From the IMG/VR virus record IMGVR_UViG_2695420624_000002, positions 1-18,279 of that record: a DNA stretch of 18,279 nt. One strand, given 5' to 3'. The notes beneath the pieces were generated by a model. It saw nothing but the letters and a program-made list of their open reading frames with translations, was not told the origin of the DNA and searched no databases. Position numbers and translations under genes: made by a program. The stretch is from a virus. Taxonomy: Duplodnaviria > Heunggongvirae > Uroviricota > Caudoviricetes. Positions 10,917 to 11,866 of the stretch are shown piece by piece (position 1 is the first letter of the stretch; each line of letters begins with the position of its first letter).

Positions 10917-10943
10917 AAAAAACAAAACCCGCCGAAGCGGGTT
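10917..10943 (-). terminator. Rho-independent terminator of the hok transcript (UUCG tetraloop hairpin plus U-tract)
   Basis: Minus strand reads AACCCGC-UUCG-GCGGGUU-UUGUUUUUU; a second 8-bp hairpin GGCGAGGG/CCCTCGCC at 10983..11005 lies in the hok 3' UTR. Confidence 0.5.
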
Positions 10944-11011
10944 ACGTGCGGGTGCGTTGAGGATGCCTGACACATCAGAGGTGGCGAGGGATTTCTCCCT
11001 CGCCTGGTCTC

Positions 11012-11167
11012 TTACTCCTCAGGTTCGTAAGCAGTGAAGACAGCGACCTCCGTCTGGCCGGTTCGGATTCGTACCTCGCAGAGGTCTTTCCTCGTTACCA
11101 GTGCCGTCACAATGACGGTTAAACAGATGACGATCAGGGCGATTAACATCGCCTTTTGCTGCTTCAT
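11012..11167 (-). CDS. hok: Hok-family type I toxin (51 aa membrane peptide)
   Basis: MKQQKAMLIALIVICLTVIVTALVTRKDLCEVRIRTGQTEVAVFTAYEPEE is the sequence I recall for HokD/RelF-type Hok peptides. The track ORF (70 aa) is an in-frame upstream extension from ATG 11224. Confidence 0.85.
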   Translation of the reverse strand: MKQQKAMLIALIVICLTVIVTALVTRKDLCEVRIRTGQTEVAVFTAYEPEE

Positions 11168-11866
11168 AGCCTGCTTCTCCTTGCCTTTCGGCACGTAAGA
11201 GGCTAACCTACATGTGTTCAGCATGGATTGAGCCTCAGATTAATGTTAAGCGTCTTGCAGGACGCGTAATGTTAACTGGGGCTTTTCTCTATCTGCCGTT
11301 GGTGTTCATGCCCGAGGCAGATAGCCTCAAGCACCCACAGCCATTCTACTTAACTACCGTTACCTCGCCAATATGAAATCAGTCAGAAAGGCGATCCATA
11401 AGAACAACAGCAAGGCAATAAATTGCCATTACAGCAGCAATAGCCAGCGCACATTTGAGAACAAGCACCACAACCTCCTGTATTGGACGTACACCAGTCC
11501 TGATAAATATGAGGCTGTCTCGTCAGTGATTCAATACAACTATTGGGTATAGTTTCTGTGATTTTGTTCTGTAGAAATGGAACACGACAACCAGTCACCA
11601 CCAGCACTTCTTTAAATACGCCAAGTCCGACGCAAGCTAACCTTCTAGTCCGCTTTGAGCGAGAAGCGGACGTTCAATGTGATAAAGCTCAGGAACATTG
11701 TCGTTGATGATGATAAAGAGGATCAGACTAACTTAGCACTTCTCATCACGTTGATAAGGCATAGAAATTACAAACACTATTGTGAATATCGTTTTACTAT
11801 AGTAAATTCAAGTAAGTTCTTTTCGTTCGTTATTACACAAAATAAAGTTCACTCTAAGGTTGAAAA

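Follow-up and report, generated by a model that had tools for sequence, protein, structure and literature searches.

Known hok/sok systems

Two described systems and one chromosomal gene are closest to the locus reported here, namely hok/sok (parB) of plasmid R1, hokW-mokW-sokW of the phages Sp5 (VT2-Sakai) and 933W (AF125520), both of which are Stx2 phages (PMC8621323), and hokD (relF) of E. coli K-12. The hokW-sokW locus of Sp5 is a functional type I toxin-antitoxin system, for which the toxicity of the Hok protein, its neutralization by Sok and its activation upon a stop in transcription were shown by experiment, and its toxin is 44% identical to the Hok protein of R1; after mitomycin C treatment the sokW RNA vanishes, HokW is made in a RecA-dependent manner and phage release doubles, while degradation of the RNA duplex depends only partially on RNase III and Hfq (PMC8621323). 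For the regulatory elements of the hok mRNA, the names and definitions of tac, fbi, ucb/aSD and dcb follow PMC9841398, in which ucb corresponds to the aSD of R1 and a mutation of the R1 Sok promoter falls in dcb.

For the chromosomal relatives, relF of K-12 is co-transcribed with relBE (PMC3598666). The gene order in the cryptic prophage Qin is relB-relE-hokD-rem-ydfU-ydfT, and this hokD has kept fbi but is devoid of its own promoter, tac, ucb, mok and sok. The intact chromosomal hokA, hokB and hokC loci showed neither post-segregational killing nor activation by rifampicin, as summarized in bioRxiv 10.1101/2025.08.07.668861, where hokC, hokD and hokE are also reported to be edited at the position equivalent to Tyr47 and the HokD coding sequence was used as a toxic control. 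An intact-looking cassette thus need not be an active one.

A putative hok/mok/sok cassette in a lambdoid prophage

The locus lies in the window, by which is meant the whole stretch of viral DNA that was analysed (18,279 nt). It is highly probable (about 0.9) that the interval at about 10917..11371 represents a complete and autonomous type I toxin-antitoxin cassette of the hok/mok/sok kind, located in the nin region of a prophage that is lambdoid (Qin/Rac/Evi-like) (Table 1). Cassettes of this type are an ordinary and previously described cargo of lambda-like E. coli prophages, and every component of this one has a counterpart in a described system, the combination of alleles being essentially a known one. 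The initial annotation had asked whether the hok gene was part of a self-contained module or an orphan toxin gene, possibly with a leader devoid of mok, sok and tac. The question was the right one, and it is answered in favor of a self-contained module, since the leader elements and sok are present: in the alignment to characterized hok/sok and hokD loci that had been suggested, mok, sok, tac and fbi could all be placed. Altogether tac, ucb, the mok Shine-Dalgarno sequence (SD), mok, dcb, fbi, the sok promoter and the Sok RNA were located in the cassette, and the sequence and structural elements of the cassette are all present and conserved. Its transcription, processing, toxicity and physiological trigger are carried over from R1 hok/sok and Sp5 hokW-sokW and would be expected to resemble theirs by analogy; its role would presumably be prophage addiction or help with lysis upon induction.

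A 521-bp region of the locus is 100% identical by megablast in E. coli 2015C-4136CT1, where RefSeq annotates hokD alone, and 99.8% identical in the temperate phage Evi, where it is annotated as 'MokW protein'. The cassette is also about 97% identical in the temperate phages mEp460 and HannyBb. The locus type is widespread, and phage records annotate it as MokW/HokW/SokW.

Table 1. Features located or predicted in the putative cassette (window positions, lower coordinate first; positions within the last column are given in the reading direction of the strand concerned where this applies)
Feature	Position	Strand	Description
Cassette	10917..11371	hok/mok on (-), sok on (+)	
hok/mok promoter (predicted)	11343..11371	(-)	-35 TTGGCG 11371..11366, 17-nt spacer, -10 TAGAAT 11348..11343; +1 at about 11336
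Full-length hok mRNA (predicted), about 420 nt	10917..11336	(-)	3' end set by the terminator
tac element GGGUGCUUGAGG	11325..11336	(-)	5' end of the mRNA; partner of fbi in the full-length minimum free energy (MFE) fold
Inner stem-loop of the tac hairpin	11289..11324	(-)	holds the 9-bp inverted repeat; from folds
ucb / anti-SD AAGCCCCAG	11276..11284	(-)	hides the mok SD in the predicted closed form
mok ORF, 70 codons, in frame with hok	11012..11224	(-)	SD GAGG 11236..11233; from the ORF list
dcb AGCCUC	11199..11204	(-)	complement of GAGGCU (11236..11231) in the mok SD region; shares positions with the sok -10 of the opposite strand
hok toxin ORF, 51 aa	11012..11167	(-)	SD AAGGAG 11182..11177; Pfam PF01848
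UACG at the Tyr47 codon	11026..11029	(-)	candidate TadA A-to-I editing site (Tyr to Cys); read from sequence
3' UTR hairpin GGCGAGGGA-GAAA-UCCCUCGCC	10983..11004	(-)	from the fold; conserved among the aligned related loci
fbi element CCUCAACGCACCC	10950..10962	(-)	pairs with tac
hok intrinsic terminator AACCCGC-UUCG-GCGGGUU + U-run	10917..10943	(-)	from the terminator scan and fold
sok promoter (predicted)	11181..11209	(+)	-35 TTGCCT 11181..11186, 17 nt, -10 TAACCT 11204..11209; read from sequence
Sok antisense RNA (predicted), 71 nt	11216..11286	(+)	14-nt single-stranded 5' tail, terminator hairpin, UUUU

Reading frames of hok and mok

The Hok peptide, previously described as intact, is encoded by a 51-codon frame at 11167..11012 on the minus strand (MKQQKAMLIALIVICLTVIVTALVTRKDLCEVRIRTGQTEVAVFTAYEPEE) and matches the Pfam family HOK_GEF at 3e-23 (81.6 bits against a cut-off of 22). 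It is identical to K-12 HokD at all 51 residues and to HokW at 46 of the 51. An in-frame ATG at 11224 had been noted as extending this peptide to 70 codons; the ORF list agrees, and the extension is mok. GAGG sits 8 nt 5' of this ATG, the 19 N-terminal residues are all identical to those of 933W MokW, and the mok product matches PHROG 251 ('MokW-like host killing') at 7.7e-33. With the mok frame and its own SD present, translation of hok through coupling to mok would be expected from family membership.

On the plus strand, the ORFs at 10909..11037 and 11034..11198 were considered as genes and judged to be spurious antisense ORFs inside the hok mRNA; the record of phage Evi annotates one of these two hok-overlapping frames as 'Mobile element protein'. 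A small hydrophobic ORF upstream of the cassette (11379..11471) has a narrow distribution; no family match was found for it, and it was not counted as part of the module.

Promoter and predicted folding of the hok mRNA

In a consensus scan for sigma-70 promoters, the hok/mok promoter agrees with the consensus at 9 of 12 positions. Its -10 position reads TAGAAT, TATAAT or TATATT in the alignment of related loci, and it is at this promoter that the similarity to 933W and other cassettes starts. The predicted 420-nt hok mRNA has an MFE of -177.1 kcal/mol (z -9.1), and its leader matches the full length of the Rfam model RF01794 (model positions 1-157) at 11336..11162 on the minus strand with 113.5 bits (E 1.4e-25, gathering score 59). 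Given this match and the z-score of the mRNA, the leader and its fold are not due to chance.

A 9-bp inverted repeat in the leader, already seen in the initial annotation, is indeed present (CTATCTGCC/GGCAGATAG at 11324..11316 and 11297..11289); its arms are paired in the full-length fold, where they form the inner stem of the tac stem-loop. The 60-nt 5' segment that holds the repeat folds at -28.5 kcal/mol (z -4.35), and compensatory variants of the repeat occur in homologues, namely CUUUCUGCC/GGCAGAAAG in the R1 type and CUGUCUGCC/GGCAGACAG in the homologous locus L007. At the other end of the transcript, the 3' UTR hairpins and UUCG terminator that had been noted were recovered by scan and fold as a hairpin (11004..10983) and a terminator with a UUCG loop, the stem of which (10943..10926) is followed by a T-run.

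Long-range pairing in the full-length MFE structure brings the mok SD region (11238..11232) together with ucb (11276..11282), and tac (11336..11325) together with fbi (10950..10962); the latter duplex has 12 bp with one bulge and an energy of -21.1 kcal/mol. This predicted fold, with its tac/fbi and ucb/mok SD pairings, corresponds to the closed form of R1, which cannot be translated. The dcb element and the mok SD region are paired in the Rfam consensus structure alignment. When fbi was removed in silico, tac paired either with the adjacent segment 11301..11317, which would resemble the metastable hairpin, or with ucb (11278..11284), which would represent the open form; the MFE folds of truncated mRNAs vary with the chosen 3' end and serve as consistency checks only.

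Compensatory changes preserve the complementarity of tac and fbi in Escherichia, Kluyvera, Photorhabdus, Erwinia, Pantoea and the R1 type, with variants such as GGGUGC/GCACCC versus GGGCGC/GCGCCC, and GAGG/CCUC versus GAGA/UCUC versus GAAG/CUUC. The duplex energies of intact loci range from about -17 to -25 kcal/mol; as the position of the bulge varies among clades, this pairing is described by per-locus duplex energies together with the listed compensatory variants.

The sok promoter and the Sok RNA

The initial annotation had found no convincing sok promoter or terminator on the plus strand, a view that does not hold. A generic sigma-70 and terminator scan of the plus strand, with a threshold of at least 4/6 matches per hexamer, likewise found no sok promoter or terminator in the right place, because the -10 hexamer matches the consensus at only 3/6 positions and the terminator has a long stem with bulges. 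With a -35 hexamer at 4/6, the sok promoter is weak as judged by consensus, and the sub-threshold -10 is probably also the reason why sok escaped reading by eye. The miss of the generic scan was dropped as proof of the absence of sok once homology and covariation had placed the gene.

For homology, the misc_RNA sokW in the GenBank record of 933W maps to 11216..11286 on the plus strand with 70 of 71 positions identical, and its annotated 5' end falls 7 nt 3' of the TAACCT hexamer. Published oligonucleotides could also be placed in the window: the sokW northern probe YO-592 matches exactly at 11216..11245, the hokW probe at 11179..11208, and the primers bounding the complementing sokW clone at 11164..11185 and 11298..11318 (PMC8621323). 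Primer YO-421, which makes the 'pro-less' mutant of sokW (PMC8621323), has four mismatches on 11185..11210, at positions 11204, 11206, 11209 and 11210 when primer and window are compared by eye; outside such designed mutations the published sokW primers match the window exactly. Since the mismatches of this mutant primer fall there, TAACCT at 11204..11209 is taken as the sok -10.

In the predicted Sok RNA, the 14-nt unpaired 5' tail (GUUCAGCAUGGAUU) includes the complement of the mok AUG and is followed by a long hairpin, the 3' end of which reads GGGGCUUUU. The RNA folds at -30.0 kcal/mol (z -5.0) against -19.1 kcal/mol for the hok-strand reading of the same interval. The hairpin carries an extra 20-nt apical extension that is common to a subset of the loci (Escherichia, Kluyvera, Enterobacteriaceae) and that makes the 71-nt Sok longer than the R1-type segment.

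Covariation of the Sok hairpin in related loci

In total, 53 related loci were fetched from other genomes (Escherichia species, Shigella, Kluyvera, Citrobacter, Pseudocitrobacter, Photorhabdus, Pantoea, Erwinia and Kalamiella) and aligned together with the 933W, Rac and R1-type loci. The Sok-strand reading of the segment is the more stable one in all 44 loci with an intact leader, with a mean of -23.4 versus -12.9 kcal/mol. The same 44 loci all have an antisense -35 hexamer (TTGCCT, TTGACC or TTGCGC) followed after 17-18 nt by a hexamer resembling a -10, in which position 2 is A and position 6 is T; these conserved positions are also within the dcb element of the hok strand, so that their conservation cannot serve as separate proof that the promoter functions.

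RNAalifold predicts a 12-pair stem for a 31-sequence alignment, with compensatory double changes at 5 pairs and 95.4% of the cells paired. Double-change cells number 40, compared with 12.5 +/- 3.6 in shuffled alignments (0/500), and pairing falls to 37-57% (at most 56.5%) when the partner is slid by 1-3 columns. G·U pairs account for 69 cells on the Sok strand, and the hok-strand reading pairs 76.6% of the same columns. The strand-specific stability and the loss of pairing on the hok strand show that the hairpin has been selected on the Sok strand.

A covariance search for Sok RNA had also been proposed; the 113.5-bit match to RF01794 lies on the hok strand and not on the Sok strand. The same orientation is observed in the reference loci: RF01794 matches the hok-sense strand in 933W (L003, 2229..2403, plus strand), where the sokW of GenBank lies opposite the match (2279..2349), and also in the R1-type plasmid locus (L004, 432..603, plus strand), while a search of the K-12 hokD locus gave no match. 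The match was rejected as an antisense RNA, as it lies on the hok strand both here and in the two reference loci (933W and R1-type), in which sok is known to occupy the opposite strand. RF01794 models the leader of the hok mRNA; a match certifies a leader of the family type and does not alone place the antisense gene. A family that is named 'sok' and flags the hok-sense leader rather than the antisense gene is a trap for annotation.

Comparison with hokD, hokW-sokW and R1 hok/sok

The initial annotation regarded the gene as lacking its relBE partners. Neither RelE nor RelB is encoded upstream, where genes for a GNAT acetyltransferase and an HTH regulator are located instead; the expectation of such partners does not stand, and a relBE linkage was rejected for this locus, as there is no relB or relE here and such a linkage belongs specifically to the K-12/Qin-type arrangement of hokD. 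An arrangement of the relBEF type, with hok directly downstream of relB-relE and without its own leader, was not found in the window. Homology to K-12 spans the terminator to position 11181, 14 nt upstream of the hok ATG, with 154 of 156 nt identical in the coding sequence and 89 of 95 in the 3' UTR with fbi and the terminator. Beyond the equivalent of 11181, K-12 continues with the 3' end of relE, whereas the window has a full 172-nt leader. Synteny with Qin is retained downstream, hok being followed by a DUF968 gene (80% amino acid identity to ydfU) and then Q.

Among 5426 complete E. coli genomes, an intact leader of the window type was identified in 4281 and a relE-hokD junction (counted at >=80% coverage) in 1173, so that the absence of relBE is the usual state and not an anomaly. 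Recognition of the complete cassette also shows the textbook hokD of K-12 to be a truncated derivative of it, the intact form being the one present in most E. coli genomes. The reference to hokD in the initial annotation and the name hokD in RefSeq follow from the identity of the Hok protein to K-12 HokD/RelF.

The likeness to hokW-mokW-sokW of Sp5/933W, which is likewise carried by lambdoid prophages, is concentrated in the leader. From +1 to the hok ATG, a single base of 172 nt differs from 933W, at 11259 in the apical loop of Sok, and both the N-terminal extension of Mok and the sok -10 hexamer are identical; the 933W features map to 11224..11012 (mokW) and 11167..11012 (hokW). In contrast, five C-terminal residues of the toxin differ (TAYEPEE here, VDYESEK in HokW), the coding sequence and 3' UTR are identical to those of 933W at 146 of 156 and 69 of 95 nt, respectively, and the sequence 3' of fbi is different, with a UUCG-loop terminator here and none in 933W. 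The cassettes also differ in position: the present one lies between the replication genes and DUF968-RusA-Q, and that of 933W near the right end, past the tail genes. As a hokW-sokW allele, the locus would therefore qualify by its sokW and mokW leader (1 difference in 172 nt) but not by its toxin and 3' UTR (46/51 aa; 69/95 nt). As judged from sequence, it is a mosaic of a hokW-type leader and sok with a hokD-type toxin and 3' end.

Sequence similarity to R1 hok/sok is only distant, and the present cassette is prophage-borne, not plasmid-borne. The order and spacing of tac, the tac stem-loop, ucb, the mok SD, the in-frame mok, dcb, the hok SD, hok and fbi are the same in both. The antisense promoter has the same position (TTGCGC-17-TATCCT in R1, TTGCCT-17-TAACCT here), Sok consists in both of a 5' tail and a hairpin, and RF01794 matches both.

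Proposed mechanism and alternative explanations

By analogy with the described systems, the cassette would be transcribed from its own sigma-70 promoter into an mRNA of about 420 nt, in which the tac/fbi and ucb/mok SD pairings would preclude both translation and the binding of Sok. Slow trimming of the 3' end would then remove fbi and allow tac to pair with ucb, by which the mok SD would be freed and translation of mok would drive the coupled translation of hok. The product, a 51-aa inner-membrane peptide, would depolarize or permeabilize the membrane and kill the cell. The 71-nt Sok would be transcribed constitutively from the opposite strand, and its single-stranded 5' tail would pair across the mok start of the processed mRNA, blocking translation of mok and thus of the coupled hok, after which the duplex would be degraded. 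As Sok would be unstable, a stop in transcription of the cassette would free the pool of stable hok mRNA, and Hok would be made; possible triggers may include loss of the prophage, host shut-off by an infecting phage and events after SOS induction. Prophage addiction and exclusion of other phages are both possible roles. The differences of the toxin C-terminus and the 3' terminator from the tested hokW count against this explanation.

An orphan toxin of the K-12 hokD/relF kind, without promoter, mok and sok, would be expressed by readthrough and incapable of antisense-controlled killing. It would account for a Hok protein identical to K-12 HokD over 51/51 residues, for the name hokD given by RefSeq to the identical locus and for the generic scan without a sok promoter, but it is hardly tenable for a locus that continues beyond the end of the K-12 similarity at 11181 into a 172-nt leader with tac, ucb, mok and sok, that is matched by RF01794 where the K-12 hokD locus is not, and that has its own promoter by the consensus scan. 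Another explanation is a structurally intact but physiologically silent relic, not activated by a stop in transcription and of no measurable benefit to the prophage. The near-identical leader is functional in Sp5 (PMC8621323), the cassette is almost unchanged in active temperate phages (Evi, 99.8%; mEp460 and HannyBb, about 97%), its leader is intact in 4281 of the 5426 genomes, and the compensatory changes in tac/fbi and the Sok hairpin argue for purifying selection on the regulation; all of these make a relic improbable, even though chromosomal hok loci failed the tests of post-segregational killing and rifampicin activation, activity would be damped if full toxicity needs TadA editing of Tyr47 to Cys (bioRxiv 10.1101/2025.08.07.668861), and the effect of hokW-sokW in Sp5 was a modest, two-fold change in phage release (PMC8621323).

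The same mechanism could also serve mainly in abortive-infection defence of the lysogen, in which the shut-off of host transcription by an invader would deplete Sok. R1 hok/sok on a high-copy plasmid reduced the plating and plaque size of T4 (cited in PMC8621323 and bioRxiv 10.1101/2025.08.07.668861), and the moron-like position of the cassette beside other cargo genes would fit such a role. However, enrichment of hok genes is seen in prophages and not near defence systems (bioRxiv 10.1101/2025.08.07.668861), the sole direct test of a prophage copy, in Sp5, pointed to an aid to lysis and phage release on induction (PMC8621323), and the window itself offers nothing to discriminate defence from addiction or lysis roles; defence as the main role seems rather unlikely.

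Implications for annotation and for coexisting cassettes

If the locus is a complete cassette, as preferred here, it would provide the prophage with an addiction or lysis-timing module of the kind that affects Stx phage release. Current understanding of hok/sok biology is unchanged by this locus, and its main value lies in a correction of annotation, as the gene is no orphan and there is no reason to expect relBE. Pipelines that name the gene 'hokD' by its protein alone lead to the expectation of relBE and to its treatment as an orphan, and under this label the antitoxin RNA, mok and the regulatory elements stay unannotated.

A single E. coli genome can contain related hok segments at as many as 9 or 10 sites. 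In view of this number, and of sok and leader sequences that are near-identical across prophages with different Hok C-termini, 3' ends and insertion sites, it is conceivable, if doubtful, that the prophage hok/sok cassettes of one cell share a pool of antitoxin, the Sok of one neutralizing the hok mRNA of another. In that case, the loss of a single prophage, or its induction, would either be buffered (anti-addiction) or be coordinated among prophages, and the mosaic of hokW-type leader and hokD-type toxin would be a product of recombination within the pool.

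Regulatory leader of hok and its relatives

The Rfam model RF01794, named for the sok antitoxin, detects the hok-sense leader and not the antisense Sok RNA, and it does so even in the reference loci of phage 933W (L003, 2229..2403) and of the R1-type plasmid (L004, 432..603). To locate sok from such a match, it is necessary to take the reverse complement and to trim it.

Fusions in which the 3' end of relE replaces the hok leader also occur beyond E. coli K-12, being identified in Kluyvera sp. CHPC 1.2972 (L030) and in E. coli ECDA1023 (L009). In the Kluyvera locus the same relE-type upstream sequence leads into a Hok that is clearly distinct (MKQQSWRFITL...); this locus retains the 3' element fbi and lacks the 5' element tac. 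The locus of E. coli ECMA0423 (L008), which encodes a Hok protein identical to that of the window, illustrates leader decay in a genome that also carries intact copies; its tac is degenerate (GACTGCATGTGG) and the tac/fbi duplex is weak (-10.1 kcal/mol). Within the coding region, the Tyr47 codon of the window Hok is UAC followed by G, and in the alignment of related loci its context is kept as TTACGAA, CTACGAA or GTACGAA.

Genomic neighborhood of the cassette

Features in and around the hok cassette of the window
Feature	Position	Strand	Remark
STnc100 sRNA match and three tRNA genes	7051..7223 and 7997..8243	-	downstream of the Q antiterminator gene
Hok Tyr47 codon and following G	11026..11029	-	
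RF01794 match	11162..11336	-	
Small ORF	11379..11471	-	29-30 codons; strongly hydrophobic; MVLVLKCALAIAAVMAIYCLAVVLMDRLSD
GNAT acetyltransferase	11867..12310	+	
HTH plus cupin regulator	12331..13095	-	
IS110-family transposase	~13101..14339		RefSeq annotation of identical strain

The small ORF lies upstream of the hok -35 element, with its end 8 nt away, and has two adjacent GTG start codons with AGGAGG (11479..11474) ahead of them. It had no match in Pfam or PHROG. Counterparts with 83-100% amino acid identity adjoin hok in the phages Evi, Tritos, mEp460_ev081 and HannyBb, and among these four only the one in HannyBb is annotated. The ORF could encode a small membrane protein, overlooked in annotation, that accompanies the hok cassette. 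A cargo block (11867..14339) is flanked by the prophage replication genes and hok and comprises the GNAT acetyltransferase, the HTH plus cupin regulator and, as annotated in RefSeq for the identical strain, the IS110-family transposase; the temperate phage Evi keeps the regulator, the acetyltransferase and hok but lacks the IS.

In the late-promoter region of lambdoid prophages, small RNA and tRNA genes downstream of Q are a typical feature. In the window the STnc100 match scored 100.8 bits against Rfam, and the tRNAs are annotated as Ile, Arg and Arg in RefSeq for the identical strain, E. coli 2015C-4136CT1. Positions 4563..18279 are 99.98% identical to this strain. For the first ~4.5 kb (1..4562), no alignment with the colinear part of its locus was obtained, and this suggests that the prophage has a mosaic junction in its late or lysis region.
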